Position numbers and translations under genes: made by a program
The notes under the pieces: model-generated
Told to the model about the DNA's origin: nothing
Databases searched by the model: none
Seen by the model: the letters and a program-made list of their open reading frames with translations, nothing else
Shown here: one piece after another, positions 5,237-59,046 of the stretch
Layout of the letters: every line of letters begins with the position of its first letter
How positions within the stretch are numbered: the stretch's first letter is position 1
Assembly (NCBI GenBank): GCA_050011565.1
Contig: JBEKIW010000001.1
Span: 384,001 to 448,000 of the forward strand
DNA: 64,000 nt
Direction: 5' to 3'
Source of the DNA: Dehalococcoidia bacterium
Lineage (GTDB): Bacteria > Chloroflexota > Dehalococcoidia > GIF9 > UBA5629

Positions 5237-5280
5237 TTTTCTCCTTTAAATTTTTAATACATGATAGTTTTAGCCAGTTG

Positions 5281-5322
5281 TCATTGGCCCTCGGGGGGCC
5301 ACATCCATCTAATTATTGTCAT
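5281..5322 (-). CDS. Putative leader peptide MTIIRWMWPPEGQ (13 aa)
   Basis: AAGGAGG RBS at 5331-5337; two UGG codons; lies between T-box terminator and trpB2. Confidence 0.6.
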   Translation of the reverse strand: MTIIRWMWPPEGQ

Positions 5323-5339
5323 TTACATAACCTCCTTCA

Positions 5340-5620
5340 AAATACAAAGCCTCTCGCCTAAGGGGCGAGAGGCTTAATCTTCGCGGTGCCACCCTTATTG
5401 GTCTTTCGACCATCTCATTCAGGTACCGCTATAACATACTATACCGATACCCCAGGTTATAATAACGCTACCCTTTGCGTCAAAGCCTACTCGTGCTAGT
5501 TCAGCCTTTCGGTTTGCGGCTCCCAGGTCCATTCAGCTTTTGCGCTCGCGTCAGCTTCCACCTTGCCTGACTCTCTATAGCTTCGCTTAAAGGCCTACTA
5601 GTCCTGTTCCCAGCCTTTGC
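5340..5620 (-). promoter_or_regulatory. T-box riboswitch, Trp specifier, upstream of trpB2
   Basis: AAGGGTGGCACCGCG T-box (5382-5396); AGTA/AGAGAG/GGTGGAA stem-I motifs; GAA-TGG specifier (5529-5531); terminator AAGCCTCTCGCC/GGCGAGAGGCTT. Confidence 0.93.
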
Positions 5621-5638: not shown

Positions 5639-5667
5639 ATTGTAAGTGTTTGTTTGTGGTTTGTCAA
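5639..5667 (-). promoter_or_regulatory. sigma70-type promoter for T-box-trpB2
   Basis: TTGACA-17 nt-TACAAT. Confidence 0.7.
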
Positions 5668-16376: not shown

Positions 16377-19091
16377 TCACCGGCGAGCCCGGCTGTTTTT
16401 TCGAACCCGCTCGATGCGAACAGCACAAACTTTAAACTCTGGGATTTTAGCTACCGGGTCTAATGCCGCGTTGGTTAATAGATTGGCAGCACTCTCAGCG
16501 AAATGGAAAGTCATGTAGACAACTTTCGGCGGTGATTCCTCAGTGACTTTTGCCTTAGTTATTACCTCGCCACGGCGCGAAACCACCTTGACTTTGTCGC
16601 CGTCTTTAATTTTCAGCGAAGATGCATCTGACGGATTTATCTCTATAACTCCCTCAGGTTCAATGGTATTGAGTCCGGCAACCTTACGCGTCATGGTGCC
16701 GGTGTGATAGTGATACAGATTTCGTCCTGTGGTAAGTACCAAAGGATATTCTTTGTCAGGTAATTCGGCAGGCGGCTTGTATTGCAGCGGTGCGAATTTT
16801 CCCAGACCGCAGACAAATCTACCCACGTGCAATATGGGCGTCCCCGGGTGGTCTTTAGTTGGACAAGGCCATTGCAGACCACATTCTTCCAGCCGCTCAT
16901 AGATGACGCCACCGTAGCTGGGCGTCAATCTTGCAATTTCTTCCATTATCTCAGACGGATTCTCGAAGTCGAAATCCTTGTCGGACATTTTCCTGGCTAG
17001 CTGACATATAATCCACCAGTCAGGCTTGGAGTTGCCCACGGGTTCTATTGCTTTCCTAACTCGTTGTATACGTCGTTCGGTATTGGTAAAGGTGCCATTT
17101 TTTTCGGCGAAGCTGACCGCCGGTAAAACAACGTCAGCCAGACGGGCAGTTTCGGTGAGAAAGAGGTCCTGAACTACCAGGAACTCGAGTTTTTTCAGTG
17201 CCTTCTCAGTGTGATTGGCATCGGCATCGCTCAATATCGGGTTTTCTCCCATTACATAGATAGCTTTAATTTTCCCATCGTAAGCGGCATCGAGCATTTC
17301 AGTTAAGGTTAGTCCCGGAGTTGGATTTAAGTCGCTTCTCCAGGCAATCTCAAACTTTTTTTGAATGTCCGGGTTGTCGACTCTTTGGTAACCGGTGTAA
17401 ACATTAGGCAAAGCGCCCATGTCACATGCACCTTGTACATTGTTCTGCCCTCGCAGAGGATTTACGCCGGTTGACGGCCTACCCATATTGCCGGTTAACA
17501 TGGCCAGGTTGGCGACTGCCATCACGTTGTCCGTGCCGTGACTATGCTGGGTAATGCCCATGGCATAGATTATGGTTGCCGGTTTACATGTAGCATATAA
17601 TCTAGCTCCCTCAGCGATGGTATCTCGCGGCACCCCTGTAGTCTTTTCCACGAAATCGAGGTCGAAATTCTGCAATGATTCCTTGAAGGCATCGAAGTTG
17701 TCGCAACATTCACTGATGAAGCTCAAATCAGCCAATCCCTCGTCCAATATAACCTTCATCATGCCCATAAGCAGAGCCACATCACTGCCCGGAACCTGTC
17801 GCAGCCATACGTCAGCATGTCGGCAAAGCTCAATCTCTCGAGGATTGGCAACAATAAGCCTGCCACCATTACGCACCGCCTTCTTTATCTCCAGTGCAAT
17901 TACCGGATGCCCGGCGGTAGTATTACTGCCTATGACTAAGATGCAGGCAGCATCTTTGATCTCACTTATAGAGTTTGTCATAGCACCGCTTCCGAAACTG
18001 GCGGCCAGACCGGCCACCGTTGGGGAATGTCAGAGACGGGCACAGTGGTCCACATTGTTGGTTTGCATCACCATTCTCGTGAACTTTTGTGCCACGTAAT
18101 TCTCTTCGTTCGTGCACTTAGCAGAAGCGATAAAAGCAAATTGATTTCCCTTATATTTATTCAGCTTATCGGCTACCATGTCAAAGGCCTCGTCCCAGTT
18201 TACCTCAACAAGTTCACCATTTCTTCGTACTAAAGGCGTAGTCAGGCGTTCAGAATGATGAACGAATTCGGCTATGCCAAAACGACCTTTGACGCAGGCC
18301 TGGCCCTGGTTGACTGAGTTTTCTAGGACAGGAACTGAGCGCGAGACCTTGCCTCCGTTTACTTCGAGGCTTAGCTGGCAGCCGACTCCGCAATAAGGGC
18401 ATGTGCTGACCACTGAGCGTTCGGGTATTCCCAGCCATTTGCTGGAACGGTCAATCAGGGCGCCCGTGGGACAAACATCAACACAAGCTCCACAGAATTG
18501 ACATCCCGAGTCCAGTAGCGTCTTATTAAAAGCGGTGCCAACTAGTGCCTGGCTGCCACGATAGGTAAAAGCTATTGCCCCATTCCCTCTTACTTCCTGG
18601 CAGACCCTGACGCAGCGCCCGCAGAGTACACACAGGTTATAGTCTCGCTCAAAGAATGGGCTGTCCTGGTAAACCGGTAAATCTTTGCGAATAGGTGGCA
18701 GGGTAAGCTCCTCTACTCCGATACGGGAGGCAAGCTCTTGCAGTTCACAACGTAGATTCTTAGGGCAGGTAAGGCATTGCTGTGGGTGTTCAGCCAGGAT
18801 GAGTTCAAAAATGTTGCGTCTCAGTTCGCGGAGCTGAAGCGTATTGGTTCGTACTGTCATGTCTTTAGTAATTGGCGTAGTGCAGGCGGTGGGAAATCCT
18901 CGCAAATTCTCAATCTCCACGATGCACAATCGGCAAGCTCCGTATGGAGTGAGACTGGGATGGTAACACAGGGTTGGAATATAAATACCCGCCTGGCGAG
19001 CTGCCTCAAGTACGGTGGCGCCTTCCTTCGCCTTGACCGCTTGCCCGTCTATAGTCAGGTTTATAACCTTTGTTTCTTCACCTACAACCAT
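16377..19091 (-). CDS. fdhA: Formate dehydrogenase alpha subunit, selenocysteine-containing (904 aa)
   Basis: Two track ORFs share one frame, joined by TGA at 18030-18032 giving VDHCARL-U-HSPTVAGL; CPYCGVGC, PLRGQNNVQG; N-terminal Fe-S domains. Confidence 0.93.
18000..18029 (-). promoter_or_regulatory. Bacterial SECIS element
   Basis: GGUGGCC-GGUCU-GGCCGCC hairpin starting 11 nt 3' of the UGA, like the fdhF SECIS. Confidence 0.8.
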
Positions 19092-25575: not shown

Positions 25576-25711
25576 AAAAAGAAAGCCTTCTCAGCGTTGC
25601 CGAGAAGGCTCAATAAACACTACCCCTATTTCCCGTCTCGGTCATCGCTGATCCAAGCGGTCCTTATTTATTTCCTAAGTAAACCTGCTCACCGCCATTA
25701 AGGTCGATGGC
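25576..25711 (-). promoter_or_regulatory. pan operon leader with intrinsic terminator (candidate pan RNA motif/attenuator)
   Basis: Terminator AGCCTTCTCGG..CTGAGAAGGCT+TTCTTTTT directly before the first gene; upstream CGCTTGGATCAGCG..GACCGAGACGG element. Confidence 0.65.
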
Positions 25712-25718
25712 AATAGTA

Positions 25719-31798: not shown

Positions 31799-32794
31799 TT
31801 ACTTGACCAAAGCCTTTATCTCTTTCACCAGTGCTGCAAATTGTTCTGGATAAAGCGATTGCATGCCATCAGATAAGGCATGCAAGGGGTCATTGTGTAC
31901 TTCAACCAGGATGCCATCGGCGCCTATTGCTATGGCTCCTTTTGACAGAGGAATAACATATTCTCTTCGGCCGGCAGCATGGCTGGGGTCAACCACAACT
32001 GGCAAGTGACTAACCTCTTTAATTGAAAGTATAGCGCTTAAATCCAGTGTGTTCCTGGTATTATCGGAGAAAGTCCTGATTCCACGTTCGCAGAGAATAA
32101 TCTGGGCATTCCCCTCAGCCATGATGTATTCGGCCGACATTAGTAATTCTTCAATCGTAGCCGCGAAACCTCGCTTCAGCAGGATTGGCTTGGTGGTGTG
32201 TCCAGCTTGGCGGAGCAAAGAATAATTTTGCATGTTCCTGGCTCCGATTTGAATAATGTCGGCGTATTGTTCAATGAGTTCGATGTTGGTGTGGTCAATA
32301 GCCTCGGTTATAATAAGTAAACCTGTTTCTTCACGCACTTTATTGAGTATTTTTAATCCTTCTTCTCCCAGCCCTTGAAAGCTGTAGGGTGAGGTCCTGG
32401 GTTTAAAGGCGCCACCACGAAAGACTTGAGCCCCATATTGTTTCACAAGATTAGCGATAGTAAGTGCCTGCTTCTCACTTTCTATGGCGCAGGGCCCGGC
32501 CATAATTACTGGTTTCTCCCCACCGATCATAACGTTACCAATGGTTATTACTGTAGGCTGTGGATGCGTTTCTCTGCTTACAAGCTTATAAGGTTTCGTT
32601 ACACGGATAGTTTCTTTCACGCCATCCAGAGCAAGTAGGCACGAGTCTTCAACCAGCCCTTGGTTTCCTACTATACAGACAGCGGTGCGCTGGGCGCCCG
32701 GTATAGAAATACCACGGTAGCCCAAGGTTTCAATTTCACGTATAACCGCTTTCACTTGCTCTTCTGTTGCATCGTTTTTCATGATAACAAGCAT
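31799..32794 (-). CDS. aroF: DAHP synthase type I-beta with N-terminal regulatory domain
   Basis: AGPCAIE, KPRTSPYSFQG, IGARNMQN, DPSH. Confidence 0.93.
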   Translation of the reverse strand: MLVIMKNDATEEQVKAVIREIETLGYRGISIPGAQRTAVCIVGNQGLVEDSCLLALDGVKETIRVTKPYKLVSRETHPQPTVITIGNVMIGGEKPVIMAGPCAIESEKQALTIANLVKQYGAQVFRGGAFKPRTSPYSFQGLGEEGLKILNKVREETGLLIITEAIDHTNIELIEQYADIIQIGARNMQNYSLLRQAGHTTKPILLKRGFAATIEELLMSAEYIMAEGNAQIILCERGIRTFSDNTRNTLDLSAILSIKEVSHLPVVVDPSHAAGRREYVIPLSKGAIAIGADGILVEVHNDPLHALSDGMQSLYPEQFAALVKEIKALVK

Positions 32795-40677: not shown

Positions 40678-40815
40678 GTAAGAAAAGGTTTAAGAGGAGG
40701 TTAGAGTATTTAACGTAACGTATAAGAAGTTTTAGACAACTGTTAACAATACAAACAATACGAAGATTAAGGGCGTGTCGATGTCGCAGGCAGTATATTT
40801 TTGGAGGTGACTACA

Positions 40816-41775
40816 TTGAAAAGGTTTGTTTTTCTTTCTCTATCACTATTATTATTACTATTTCTCATCCCGGGTTGTTTAACAGTTCCATCAGTAGGAA
40901 CGCCACCGGTTATCATAGAATTTAGCAATAATCCATCTACCATTAATGCCGGTGACACGTCAATCTTGTTTTGGGCTGTTACCGGGGCTACATCGGTGAG
41001 TATAGACCAGGGTATAGGTCAGGTTAATGTTGCGGGGACCAGGGTAGTATCACCGACTGCATCCACTGTGTATACTATAAGTGCTACCAACTCTGCTGGT
41101 ACCATCACCAGATCAGCGGTGACTACTGTCAACTCAGCACCACTCCCCTTGCCTATGCCATTCGCGGTAACCAGTGTTATAGCCAATACTTCGCCATCAA
41201 GCTTCACCGGTGCTTGTCCCAAAACCTTCACCTTTTACGCTACTATCACTGCCAACGGTCCTGGCACAGTTACTTACAGGTGGGAAAGAAGCGATGGCGG
41301 ATATAGTGATATCCAAAGCATCACCTTTTACGCAGCCGGTACAAAAATAACAACATTGCAGTGGGAATTGAGTGGATCGGCTTCCGGTTGGCATCGTATC
41401 CACGTTTTGACTCCCTATGATGCAGCATCGAATCCGGTATATTACACACTCAACTGTAGTGCTGGCTCATTGGTGACAGGTATCATTGTGGGTGTTGATC
41501 AGTACCCATTCACCGGTCCTTGTCCCAAGACCATTCACTTTTGGGGAATTATCGCCGCCAATGGTCCTGGTACAGTTACTTACAGGTGGGAGAGAAGCGA
41601 TGGTGCTACTGATCCGGAGACCATCACCTTCACTGCCGCTGGCTCGCAGGCCGTCAGTAACCTATTGACACGTGGCGAAGGTACTGGATGGCAACGCCTC
41701 CATGTTCTCACGCCCAATGATGCGGTATCGAGTCAAATCGACTTTGTAGTGACGTGCTACGACCTGTCTCAATAG
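40816..41775 (+). CDS. Lipoprotein paralog L1: shared Ig-like domain plus two tandem beta-rich repeats
   Basis: IPGC lipobox; ANGPGTVTYRWERSDG twice; TTG start after GGAGG. Confidence 0.85.
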   Translation: MKRFVFLSLSLLLLLFLIPGCLTVPSVGTPPVIIEFSNNPSTINAGDTSILFWAVTGATSVSIDQGIGQVNVAGTRVVSPTASTVYTISATNSAGTITRSAVTTVNSAPLPLPMPFAVTSVIANTSPSSFTGACPKTFTFYATITANGPGTVTYRWERSDGGYSDIQSITFYAAGTKITTLQWELSGSASGWHRIHVLTPYDAASNPVYYTLNCSAGSLVTGIIVGVDQYPFTGPCPKTIHFWGIIAANGPGTVTYRWERSDGATDPETITFTAAGSQAVSNLLTRGEGTGWQRLHVLTPNDAVSSQIDFVVTCYDLSQ

Positions 41776-42584: not shown

Positions 42585-43511
42585 TTGAAAAGGTTTATTT
42601 TTCTTTCTCTATCACTACTACTACTAATTCTCATACCGGGTTGTATTACAGTTCCAGCCCCGGCACCAAATCCTACCCCACCAGTAGGAACGCCACCGTT
42701 TATCATAGAATTTAGCAGTAATCCATATACCATTAATGCCGGTGATACGTCAATCTTGTTTTGGAATGTTACCGGGGCTACATCGGTGAGCATAGATCAG
42801 AGTATAGGTCGGGTAGATTTTACGGGAATCAAGGTAGTGTCACCGGCTATATCCACTGTTTATACTATAAGTGCCACCAACTCTGCTGGGACCATCACCA
42901 GATCAGCGGTGACTATTGTCAACTCAGCACCACCCCCTGCGCCTATACCGTTGACTGGTATCACCGTGGGTGTTATGCCAGGTGAAAGTGGGTCAATGGT
43001 CAAGAGCGGTAGGACCTATACCAGGTTGCCTGCTATCTGTGTTGGGGACAATGGAGGCGACCTTGCCAGCCGCGCTTTCTTAAGCTTCGACATTTCGTGG
43101 CTCCCCAGCAATGCATTGATAGACGAGGTGGTCCTGTCCCTAGGCGGGTATACGTCAACCGGTTTACCGACATATACGGATCCAGTCTACGGCCCCCGGT
43201 ACGGCAACCTTGGAGCGCTGGAGATTTACAGGTACCAGTATGGTACATATGAAGGTCTCGATACATTAGCCTATAACGGACAGGGGGAGCTGGTGGCCTC
43301 GGGTAAAATAACCAACTATCCGCTCGCGGTCTGGAACTTAGAAATCAAGGATCCTGCTAGCGGAAAGTCCAGTGTCCAGGGGTTAGTCATAGCCGGGCAG
43401 CCCAGGTTCCAGTTGAGGATTCAATTTTTCACGTCCACTAACTGGAATGGTGTGGCAGACACGCTGTGCTTTGACAAAGCCACGTTGACGGTTAGATACC
43501 ATTTGCCCTGA
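42585..43511 (+). CDS. Lipoprotein paralog L2: shared Ig-like domain plus DNRLRE-like C-terminal domain
   Basis: IPGC lipobox; VGDNGGDLASRAFLSFDISWLPSNALIDEVVLSL. Confidence 0.85.
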   Translation: MKRFIFLSLSLLLLILIPGCITVPAPAPNPTPPVGTPPFIIEFSSNPYTINAGDTSILFWNVTGATSVSIDQSIGRVDFTGIKVVSPAISTVYTISATNSAGTITRSAVTIVNSAPPPAPIPLTGITVGVMPGESGSMVKSGRTYTRLPAICVGDNGGDLASRAFLSFDISWLPSNALIDEVVLSLGGYTSTGLPTYTDPVYGPRYGNLGALEIYRYQYGTYEGLDTLAYNGQGELVASGKITNYPLAVWNLEIKDPASGKSSVQGLVIAGQPRFQLRIQFFTSTNWNGVADTLCFDKATLTVRYHLP

Positions 43512-43688: not shown

Positions 43689-44330
43689 TTGAAAAGATTA
43701 GTTTTTCTTTCTCTATCACTACTACTAATGATTCTCATCCCGGGTTGTATTACAGTTCCAGCGGCAGGAACGCCACCGGTTATCATAGAATTTAGCAATA
43801 ATCCATCTACCATTAATGACGGTGGCACGTCAACTCTGTTGTGGAATGTTACTGGAGCTAACTCGGTGAGTATAGACCAGGGTATAGGTCAGGTTAATGT
43901 TGCGGGGACCAGGGTAGTATCACCGACTACATCCACTGTTTATACTATAAGTGCTACCAACTCTTCTGGTACCGTTACAAGATCAGCGGTGACTATTGTC
44001 AACTCAGCATCACCGCCACCCCCTGCTTCGACCTCATTTGCGGTGACGGGCATCATAGCCAATACTGAGCCATCAAACTCCACCGGTTGTTTCACCCTTT
44101 ACGCTAATATCACTGCCAATGGACCCGGCACAGCTAGTTACATCTGGGAATCAACCGATGGCGGCGGATATAGTTATACCTGGAATATCACATTTCCCAC
44201 GGCCGGTATACAAAAAATAACATTACCGGTGGAAATGAGTGCATTGCCTTCCGGTCTGTATAGAGTCCACGTTTTGACTCCCAATGATGTTGTATCGAAT
44301 TCGACATATTACACAACCTGTGCGCCCTAA
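43689..44330 (+). CDS. Lipoprotein paralog L3: shared Ig-like domain plus one beta-rich repeat
   Basis: IPGC lipobox; ITANGPGTASYIWESTDGG..RVHVLTPND. Confidence 0.85.
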   Translation: MKRLVFLSLSLLLMILIPGCITVPAAGTPPVIIEFSNNPSTINDGGTSTLLWNVTGANSVSIDQGIGQVNVAGTRVVSPTTSTVYTISATNSSGTVTRSAVTIVNSASPPPPASTSFAVTGIIANTEPSNSTGCFTLYANITANGPGTASYIWESTDGGGYSYTWNITFPTAGIQKITLPVEMSALPSGLYRVHVLTPNDVVSNSTYYTTCAP

Positions 44331-47616: not shown

Positions 47617-47718
47617 ATCAATAAGAAAATGTTATAAGAAGTTTATGGCAACTGTTAGCAATACGAAGATTAAGGACGTGTCGATGTCGCAGGCAACATA
47701 TTTTTGGAGGTGACTACA

Positions 47719-48330
47719 TTGAAAAGGTTTGTTTTTCTTTCTCTATCACTACTACTACTACTGATTCTTATCCCAAGTTGTATTACAGTTCCAGCCCCGT
47801 CACCAAATCCTATCCCACCGGTAGGAACGCCACCGGTTATCATGGAATTTAGCAGTAATCCATCTACCATTAATGCCGGTGGCACGTCAACTCTGTTGTG
47901 GAATGTTACCGGGGCTACATCGGTGAGTATAGACCAGGGTATAGGTCAGGTTAATGTTGCGGGGACCAGGGTGCTATCACCGACTAAATCCACTGCGTAT
48001 ACTATAAGTGCCACCAACTCTGCTGGTACCGTTATCAGATCATCGGCGATTATTATCGTCTCAGCGCCAGCGCCAGCGCCACCGCCACAAACTACACCTA
48101 GTAATCCTGTTATCAATTTCACCGCCAGCTATGGCGGAGGTACTTCGTGGCAACTTAACTGGAATGTATCAAACGCCACACAGATAGTCATCCAGCCTGA
48201 TATAGGTCCTGTTAACCCAACAGGTAGCACAGTGGTCACAGTACCCTCAGGACAAACTAAATTGTACAGGTTGGAGGCAGTAAACGACTGGGGATGGGCC
48301 TATTGGGAAGTCGTTATGGCATCCCCTTAA
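47719..48330 (+). CDS. Lipoprotein paralog L4: shared Ig-like domain plus a second diverged Ig-like domain
   Basis: IPSC lipobox; LNWNVSNATQIVIQPDIGPV resembles LLWNVTGATSVSIDQGIGQV. Confidence 0.85.
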   Translation: MKRFVFLSLSLLLLLILIPSCITVPAPSPNPIPPVGTPPVIMEFSSNPSTINAGGTSTLLWNVTGATSVSIDQGIGQVNVAGTRVLSPTKSTAYTISATNSAGTVIRSSAIIIVSAPAPAPPPQTTPSNPVINFTASYGGGTSWQLNWNVSNATQIVIQPDIGPVNPTGSTVVTVPSGQTKLYRLEAVNDWGWAYWEVVMASP

Positions 48331-57616: not shown

Positions 57617-57692
57617 GGGCGGTTAGCTCAGTGGTTAGAGCGCTGCGTTGACATCGCAGAGGTCACCGGTTCAAGTCCAGTACCGCCCACCA
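57617..57692 (+). tRNA. tRNA-Val(GAC)
   Basis: GGGCGGT...ACCGCCCACCA; anticodon loop TT-GAC-AT; TTGACT-17-TAAAAT upstream. Confidence 0.96.
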
Positions 57693-57774
57693 TGTACGCA
57701 GTTTACATAAAGTTGATCCGCACCTCATCGAGCTGGTAGAATTACTTTTAGGCCCTGAAGGGCGGAGGCGGCTG

Positions 57775-59046
57775 ATGCTGAAACAGATGGGTAACGACGA
57801 GCTCTTCCAGCTCTACGACAAAGATCTCATTCTACGGCTGCGCAATGCCAAGAATCTCAGCGATACCAAGAAAATTCTGGTATTGTTCAAAGACCATCTC
57901 GGCGACTACCCGCCATCGGCAGAGCTGGCAAAGTCATTTATTTACCGGTACCTCGATAGGAAGCCACGGACGCTGTACCGTTATGCGCAGATGGTACGGA
58001 TGTTTATGAAATGGTATGGGGAACCGATAACTGATTTCAAAGTGAGGGTACCCAAGTCGCTGCCGCCCTATACCGACAACAGCGACATCGACAGGCTGTT
58101 CCAGGCCATCGAAAGCAAGGTGACGCACAAGAAGCTCATCACCAGAGACAGGCTCCTGGTTGAACTGGCGCTAAAAAGCGGCATGCGTCGCGGTGAGCTG
58201 GCCAGTCTGGAGGTCAGGGATATCCACGGTGACTTTCTGGTGGTGCGAAGGGGCAAATATGAGAAGGACAGGGCTATCCCGTTACCACCTGACCTGACGG
58301 CGCGATTGGGTAGCTACATTAAGGGCAAGGAGCCTGCCGAGAAAGTATTTAATCTTAAAGGCCCTTCTATCACCATGAAAATAAAGAAATTTGCCAGGAA
58401 AGCCGGACTCGCTGATCTGCATGCCCATGCCTTGCGGCACAAATTTGCCACCGATCTGCTGGAACACGGCGCTGATATCAGGTCTGTGCAAGAGCTGCTG
58501 GGCCATGAGAATCTATCCACGACGCAGGTGTATTTGGCGGTTACAGACAAGCGGTTAAGGGAGGCGGTAAACCTGCTGGAAGGGGGCAGGAGCCCGAAGA
58601 AGGTCGAGTTGCCGGAGGAACCTGTAGACAGGCCAATAGTCACCGTTAAGGCAGTTTACAAATCAGCTGAGACGGTCTCCACGGTATTGCCGGCGCCAAC
58701 TTACCTCTCGCATTTTGTGGTATCAAACGAGGGTAAGACTCCGGCCATCGAACTTGAGGTAGGGCTGCTCGACAGTCACAGGAATTCGCTAGAGGGTCGC
58801 CGCGAGACCGTCCTGATGGTTGGTGAGAAGATAGAGTGGACGCCGACCTGGGATAAGCCAGACGGTCAGTACTACGTCGTCTGCCAGTACAGAACGGCCA
58901 CCGCAAATAAGCAATCTGAACAATGGAACCAGACATGGTTGCCGTTTGAATTGATACAGGCTGGCACGCCCGGTGACGTCTTCGTGGTGCAAGGACATCT
59001 GAATTTCCAGGCCAATATCGAACAAAATGAGAAAATTATTGTTTAG
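57775..59046 (+). CDS. Tyrosine recombinase/integrase with ~150-aa C-terminal extension
   Basis: SGMRRGE, GK, HALRH, LLGHENLSTTQVY catalytic residues. Confidence 0.92.
   Translation: MLKQMGNDELFQLYDKDLILRLRNAKNLSDTKKILVLFKDHLGDYPPSAELAKSFIYRYLDRKPRTLYRYAQMVRMFMKWYGEPITDFKVRVPKSLPPYTDNSDIDRLFQAIESKVTHKKLITRDRLLVELALKSGMRRGELASLEVRDIHGDFLVVRRGKYEKDRAIPLPPDLTARLGSYIKGKEPAEKVFNLKGPSITMKIKKFARKAGLADLHAHALRHKFATDLLEHGADIRSVQELLGHENLSTTQVYLAVTDKRLREAVNLLEGGRSPKKVELPEEPVDRPIVTVKAVYKSAETVSTVLPAPTYLSHFVVSNEGKTPAIELEVGLLDSHRNSLEGRRETVLMVGEKIEWTPTWDKPDGQYYVVCQYRTATANKQSEQWNQTWLPFELIQAGTPGDVFVVQGHLNFQANIEQNEKIIV

Follow-up and report, generated by a model that had tools for sequence, protein, structure and literature searches.

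In Bacillus subtilis, the rtpA (anti-TRAP) operon is preceded by a Trp T-box and by a leader peptide, rtpLP, which contains three tandem Trp codons and terminates next to the Shine-Dalgarno (SD) sequence of its target, and to our knowledge tandem control by a T-box and a Trp leader is known only from this operon. A T-box on anti-TRAP was listed in PMC2494555, as were T-boxes on trpE, a trpB-like gene and ileS of Dehalococcoides. The window, by which we mean the whole 64,000-nt stretch of Dehalococcoidia DNA analyzed, likewise carries T-boxes on trpE and trpB2. Between the latter T-box and trpB2 lies a short upstream ORF (uORF) with a Trp codon at which a GC hairpin begins. The term 'leader peptide' does not occur in PMC2494555 and no such uORF and hairpin were seen in the sections consulted, and a literature search, made mostly among open-access papers, returned no description of the uORF. 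The element is a conserved, apparently undescribed variant of Trp-leader control in anaerobic Chloroflexota.

On the minus strand of the window (Table 1), a sequence-only reading had placed an AAGGAGG SD, a 13-codon ORF and 44 nt between the T-box terminator and trpB2, and this layout was confirmed by coordinates and translation, with 44 nt from the uORF stop to the trpB2 start (5236). The T-box combined an RF00230 match above the gathering threshold with a UGG specifier, in a GAA-UGG context common to most orthologous T-boxes, an antiterminator motif and an intrinsic terminator; this terminator, upstream of the uORF, was the only one found between 5100 and 6100. Codons 8–13 of the uORF coincide with the hairpin at 5301-5285. 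This hairpin at the UGG had been overlooked in the sequence-only reading, as had an ATG-TAA pair at 5328-5323, 2 nt past the uORF SD, which has no counterpart in the closest listed relative (L001) and is probably incidental. As that reading had also stated, the trpE T-box has no such ORF: the terminator of this second window T-box (37605-37336) leads straight into the trpE ribosome-binding site (RBS).

Table 1. Features of the trpB2 leader region in the window.
Feature	Position	Strand	Remark
Sigma-70-type promoter, TTGACA-17-TACAAT	5639..5667	-	11/12 consensus match; consensus match only
T-box riboswitch, Trp-specific	5358..5620	-	Rfam RF00230, 96.6 bits vs gathering 93
Specifier codon UGG, in specifier loop	5529..5531	-	Rfam alignment position
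T-box antiterminator motif, UGGCA bulge	5382..5395	-	
Intrinsic T-box terminator, 12-bp stem 5375-5347 and T-rich tail	5339..5375	-	
uORF SD, AAGGAGG	5331..5337	-	-12.4 kcal/mol vs anti-SD; 8 nt before ATG 5322
13-codon uORF, MTIIRWMWPPEGQ and stop	5281..5322	-	Translation; 13 further loci with homologous ORFs
Accessory Trp codon (codon 6), outside hairpin	5305..5307	-	TGG in 7/14 homologs
Anchor Trp codon (codon 8), hairpin bases 1-3	5299..5301	-	TGG, in frame with start, 14/14
GC hairpin UGGCCC-loop-GGGCCA from anchor Trp codon	5285..5301	-	-11.0 kcal/mol; in centroid fold
A-rich, weakly structured spacer	5247..5280	-	40-56% A, 4-20% C over 14 leaders
trpB2 SD, AAGGAG	5241..5246	-	
trpB2, TrpB-like PLP enzyme, 457 aa	3863..5236	-	TIGR01415 630 bits (cut-off 519); PRK12391 708 bits (cut-off 366)

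A genome scan with TrpB2 gave at least 578 confirmed stretches; the best 80 of these were used, and no record titled Dehalococcoides is among them. In a quick IQ-TREE search of TrpB2 rooted at the midpoint, the window grouped with 35 Dehalococcoidia-type loci (SH-aLRT 96), forming a 36-member clade among the best 80 of at least 578 matches, and most of this clade shares the downstream htrA/ileS neighbourhood. The leaders were classified from an automatic list that covered, in the 36 members, all SD-led starts up to 200 nt from trpB2 (L031 had no called start) at an SD threshold of -7, with L018 (SD -6.3) added by eye. A Trp-Pro ORF was present in 14 of the 36 (the window, L001, L004, L005, L006, L016, L017, L018, L021, L023, L037, L041, L049 and L058), a start-stop or Met-Ser-stop in 8 (L002, L003, L007, L009, L013, L015, L019 and L025), and a strong SD with a Trp-free ORF or no canonical start in 4 (L008, L011, L014 and L030), while the leaders of 10 contained no extra SD or ORF at all. 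Outside the clade, none of the 45 other loci among the best 80 of at least 578 matches had a Trp-Pro ORF; many of these 45 carry a T-box motif directly before trpB2. Because the carriers span 64–94% TrpB2 identity and include the earliest-branching pair (L041), the Trp-Pro element looks ancestral, with repeated loss, on this midpoint-rooted tree. Exact look-up of two uORF products in a protein collection, those of L021 and L006, whose length sufficed for this search, found neither.

An Rfam search covering 32 of the 80 loci matched a T-box upstream in 10 of 13 carrier loci; in L017 and L058 an antiterminator and terminator were recognized by pattern only. The remaining locus, L018, retains a Trp-Pro uORF with its hairpin ahead of trpB2 (L018:572-725) and has no T-box upstream, so that the element may work alone there, or the locus may reflect a rearrangement or an assembly artefact; in place of the T-box, a small membrane-protein-like ORF is located upstream. 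On the tree, the start-stop and Met-Ser-stop forms arise on four separate branches, on which the Trp codon and hairpin were lost and the SD and start retained. In four of the start-stop loci (L007, L009, L015 and L019) the trp operon now stands directly upstream of trpB2. This arrangement was observed in seven loci overall (those four with L008, L010 and L030), where the Trp ORF is present in 0/7 and an extra strong SD is kept in the trpA-trpB2 gap of 6/7. At L008:4927-4960, ACG-TGG comes after an SD and lies within an extended hairpin, in which a GTG is buried as well; this may be what is left of the Trp hairpin. The trp operon of the window itself contains, between trpF and trpB1, an ORF (31799-32794, minus strand) that we take to be DAHP-synthase-like; tblastn found no such gene at that operon place in L007-L009, L015, L019 or L030.

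In all 14 carriers, the uORF SD core lies 7–10 nt before an ATG or GTG, and an anchor TGG follows in frame, at codon 8 in 12 leaders and at codons 6 and 9 in one leader each. Codons 2–7 average 44% nucleotide identity, and no in-frame stop precedes the anchor Trp (shuffle P 0.00065 for all 14 leaders and 0.019 for 8 dissimilar representatives), the frame being tested by only two length changes among the 14 uORFs. A frame +1 stop count (14) was discarded, inflated by the TG of the start codon itself. A second TGG two codons before the anchor was found in 7/14 leaders, on separate branches, and the codon between the two takes 7 values; extra Trp codons number 11/174 compared with 2.9 expected, a statistic that overstates the case because 7 of the 11 lie in one shared column. 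The uORFs are 9 to 25 codons long and their stop position varies freely, falling 26–71 nt from the trpB2 start, in all three frames and never overlapping it. The dipeptide W-P occurs in 14/14, and no residue is conserved after it: the next position shows 7 amino-acid values and stop, with W-P-P in 3 leaders and W-P-stop in 2. The Pro codon is CCC in 12/14, doubling as the hairpin 5′ arm, so that selection on Pro is inseparable from selection on the RNA; judging from the codons, the stem may have brought Pro along as a by-product.

The leader alignment proposed in the sequence-only reading thus upheld the SD, start, frame and codon-8 anchor Trp as conserved features and not the second Trp or WPP. 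Its pair of Trp codons reduces to the anchor, codon 6 being Arg in the closest listed relative (94% TrpB2 identity), and W-P-P as a stalling motif was not borne out, since it is restricted to 3/14 leaders and replaced by a stop in 2.

As controls we took 114 further genes of these loci whose non-coding upstream sequence measured at least 50 nt; they include mutual orthologs and are not fully independent. Among them, an SD-led short ORF occurred in 1/114, one with Trp in 0/114 and a start-stop in 1/114, so an SD-led short ORF with a conserved cognate codon, the general mark of an amino-acid leader peptide, was present in 14/36 trpB2 leaders versus 0/114 controls. Start-stop or Met-Ser-stop forms (8/36 versus 1/114) and an extra SD at least as strong as -10 kcal/mol (25/36 versus 15/114; the L028 case sits in a terminator stem) were likewise enriched. 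The pattern of SD, start and TGGCC-loop-GGCC matched 13 times in all 788 kb, and 11 of these matches were trpB2 leaders. The uORF was found in none of 9 ileS T-box leaders. The earlier claim of a second, ribosome-based Trp-codon element specific to trpB2 is supported, at the level of sequence, by the SD, start, frame and Trp kept in 14/36 leaders and absent from the trpE leader and from 9/9 ileS T-box leaders. We consider it very probable, from this pattern of conservation, that the uORF is a selected and translated Trp-codon element.

The GC hairpin begins exactly at the anchor TGG in every carrier and spans 14–18 nt. Across the 14 leaders, 68/70 core cells of the first five pairs are paired, the first pair being U-A in 10 leaders and U-G in the other 4. 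All three reading frames are represented among the 3′ arms, and GNRA loops occur in two leaders. Tail shuffles gave P < 0.05 in 12/14 leaders, the exceptions being L006 (0.11), with a hairpin of 4 pairs only, and L041 (0.08). By comparison, such a hairpin begins at 2/46 Trp-Pro pairs located within long ORFs. No two-sided compensatory change was found in the hairpin core among the 14 leaders, and RNAalifold predicted 0 pairs when given the 14 rows aligned without gaps, since the 3′ arm is displaced by differing loop lengths, so that support for the hairpin comes from the per-sequence folds and the register table. No hairpin at the stop codon in start-stop variants beat shuffles in any of 10 leaders (P 0.15–1.0; including L008 and the out-of-clade L054).

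Termination and RBS occlusion, the known outputs of such leaders, are excluded by the geometry of the uORF, which must therefore work by another mechanism. Placed in tandem with the T-box, the element would probably serve as another Trp sensor, acting post-transcriptionally. For its output we tentatively favour, at somewhat less than even chances, a ribosome roadblock, in which a Trp-starved ribosome stalled on UGG would stabilize the trpB2 mRNA from its 5′ side. Uncharged tRNA-Trp would allow RNA polymerase to read through the T-box, and ribosomes would load at the strong SD and translate 5–8 variable codons. When Trp-tRNA is scarce, the ribosome would halt with UGG in the A site atop the hairpin 5′ arm, forming a roadblock 58–101 nt upstream of the trpB2 start that would shield the mRNA from 5′-dependent decay and possibly mask a hairpin-plus-AU-rich cleavage signal. 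Once Trp returned, the ribosome would run off, the hairpin would reform and decay would accelerate, the uORF peptide being a by-product; orthologs with an SD and start-stop, or an SD alone, would be constitutive versions of the roadblock.

The start-stops on four branches, given their frequency relative to controls, point to ribosome binding being retained where the Trp codon was lost, and the extra strong SD upstream of the functional RBS in 25/36 leaders is what a roadblock predicts. In Bacillus, a stall in the ermC leader and an SD without translation both stabilize long downstream regions (PMC7509114, PMC3997798), and T-box leaders are processed upstream of the terminator (PMC3997798). It is the degenerate series of leaders together with these Bacillus precedents that commits us to a Trp-starvation-dependent roadblock. 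Several observations count against this choice: 10/36 orthologs have no extra SD, the frame argument rests on two length changes only, start-stops are equally compatible with ribosome hand-over, and distant protection is weak outside Bacilli, for example in E. coli (PMC3997798). Motifs of RNase J, RNase Y, Rho, TRAP and EF-P were matched 0 times in the window and the 80 loci, which represent a small part of each genome, and a literature search on RNase J and RNase Y in Dehalococcoidia, made mostly among open-access papers, found nothing. The 5′-3′ exonuclease RNase J, or RNase Y, on which the roadblock would depend, is presumably present in Dehalococcoidia.

The start-stop forms lie 48–60 nt upstream of trpB2 in 6 loci, and the spacer is A-rich and unstructured, as would suit ribosomes that leave the uORF or start-stop, move along the spacer by scanning or sliding and start anew at trpB2; uORFs do work by translational coupling in other bacteria (PMC13285730). 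In this hand-over, the Trp codon would gate the flow, giving less TrpB2 in severe starvation (a band-pass), or a queue would feed initiation. However, the stop-to-start distance is variable and in any frame, which excludes overlap coupling and, in most leaders, steric occlusion, trpB2 has its own SD, a stall would run counter to the direction of the T-box, and the hairpin would hinder scanning where the stop lies in the loop or before the 3′ arm, leaving hand-over rather unlikely. The hairpin could also act on transcription, by pausing RNA polymerase while the UGG-stalled ribosome blocks Rho loading in the spacer, the inverse of a tnaC- or mgtL-like switch. The Trp codon in the 5′ arm does resemble segment 1:2 of the classical trpL leader, which is a pause hairpin, and since no intrinsic terminator follows, any termination would be factor-dependent; but rut sites are not known to be C-poor, a spacer with 4–20% C would be a poor Rho site, and no Rho motif was matched in the small part of each genome covered by the window and the 80 loci. 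We regard such polarity as distinctly unlikely. Alternatively, the inverted repeat alone might be functional, as an RNA- or DNA-binding site or a nuclease barrier, with the ORF incidental or a decaying relic: the 5′ arm is invariant, WP is simply TGGCCC read out, and 22/36 orthologs have no Trp ORF. The fixed in-frame distance from an SD-led start in 14/14 leaders, the absence of stops and the accessory TGG beyond the stem make this quite improbable, and the departures at the first pair, all 4 from U-A to U-G, together with arm spacing from 14 to 18 nt, fit an RNA rather than a DNA operator.

Two further readings descend from the sequence-only reading. A WPP or WP-stop arrest peptide that responds to free Trp, indole or EF-P status would account for W-P in every carrier and for the W-P-P and W-P-stop forms, yet peptide conservation of the kind expected for TnaC-like or polyproline arrest did not extend beyond W-P, the CCC codon is explained by the hairpin, and the position after Pro is nearly free; we hold it very improbable. 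Attenuation of the rtpLP type, in which the trpB2 RBS would be opened or occluded by a ribosome that has stalled or is terminating, matches the gross order of T-box, Trp-codon leader and gene in B. subtilis rtpA. The analogy fails on geometry: the stop is in most leaders too far upstream for steric occlusion, and the mean opening energy of the trpB2 initiation region over the 14 leaders was 5.35 kcal/mol with the leader free, 5.26 with an initiating ribosome, 5.26 with a ribosome at Trp and 5.75 at the stop, amounting to no RBS-opening switch. Folding of the 14 leaders, which showed no ribosome-dependent RBS switch, agrees with the earlier remark that no RBS-sequestering helix is visible, and we give this type of attenuation scarcely any credence. 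A classical trpL attenuator was rejected, with no alternative antiterminator or intrinsic terminator downstream of the uORF, as was an interplay between ribosome and terminator, the terminator-to-SD distance varying by tens of nt and L018 having the ORF without a T-box. Gene-60-like bypass into trpB2 was discarded as well; a landing codon matched in 7/14 leaders, and in 6 of these it was the trpB2 AUG.

How a single Trp codon might hold a ribosome long enough for the roadblock is a separate matter. The first base of the stem is always the U of the hungry codon, which suggests A-site geometry and could explain why one Trp codon suffices: the hairpin might refold in the empty A site when Trp-tRNA is late, compete with it, and turn one Trp codon into a long, switch-like stall, a reading by analogy that we consider doubtful. 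At the take-off site of T4 gene 60, the A site accommodates a folded 12-nt hairpin, which keeps out RF1 and near-cognate tRNA (PMC5462505), and further cases of short hairpins folding in the decoding site are described in PMC7282821. An alternative geometry from the latter paper, with the stem 11–12 nt beyond the P-site codon, would put the pause at codon 3–4 rather than at Trp. If A-site refolding were true, the leader would constitute a cellular amino-acid sensor made of a hungry sense codon and a self-occluding hairpin, one that could dispense with both tandem codons and an arrest peptide, that sits on top of a T-box and that evolution could reduce to a start-stop roadblock.

Several features elsewhere in the window were recorded. 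On the minus strand, an in-frame TGA at 18030-18032, in DHCARL*HSPT, joins ORFs 19091-18030 and 18017-16377, which are presumably formate-dehydrogenase-like; on this sequence context, the TGA is probably a selenocysteine codon. Four paralogous minus-strand ORFs (40801-41775, 42585-43511, 43689-44330 and 47704-48330) have in common a lipoprotein-like signal and a domain of the PPVIIEFSNNPSTIN type and differ in their C-terminal parts. An Rfam pan motif (25629-25712, minus strand, 52 bits) precedes what we assume to be a peptidase-like gene and genes resembling panD, panB and panC. A tRNA (57617-57689) is directly followed by ORF 57775-59046, which we take to be tyrosine-recombinase-like, and 57617-59046 is likely the edge of an integrated element.

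The leader places the logic of a T-box plus a Trp leader in another phylum and on another gene. At less than 70 nt the element is portable into B. subtilis or a cell-free system, and the natural series from Trp-hairpin ORF through start-stop and SD only to none makes the role of leader start-stop ORFs testable; it also bears on whether short sense-codon hairpins regulate decoding inside the A site. As in trpL, a short leader carries its Trp codon or codons in the 5′ arm of the first hairpin; unlike trpL, the uORF has no 2:3 or 3:4 helices and no downstream terminator. With rtpA and rtpLP it shares two tandem sensors of uncharged tRNA-Trp, a T-box and then a Trp-codon uORF, from which it departs in having one invariant Trp codon (no adjacent Trp codons in 14/14, W-x-W in 8/14), a conserved hairpin that starts at this codon, a stop 26–71 nt from the target in place of one beside it, no RBS helix, and TrpB2 in Chloroflexota as its target. 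Like the ermC/ermA stall and STAB-SD systems, it supplements the true ribosome-binding site with another one farther upstream in the 5′ UTR and has SD-only or start-stop derivatives (PMC7509114, PMC3997798); the proposed trigger is a hungry Trp codon, whereas theirs is an antibiotic or none, and stabilization is putative here. Regulatory bacterial start-stops have been described inside E. coli genes (bioRxiv 10.1101/520783). Finally, the leader resembles gene 60 in its short GC hairpin containing the A-site codon (PMC5462505, PMC7282821), with the difference that this codon is a sense Trp codon in a 14–18-nt hairpin, compared with a stop codon in the 12-nt hairpin of gene 60.
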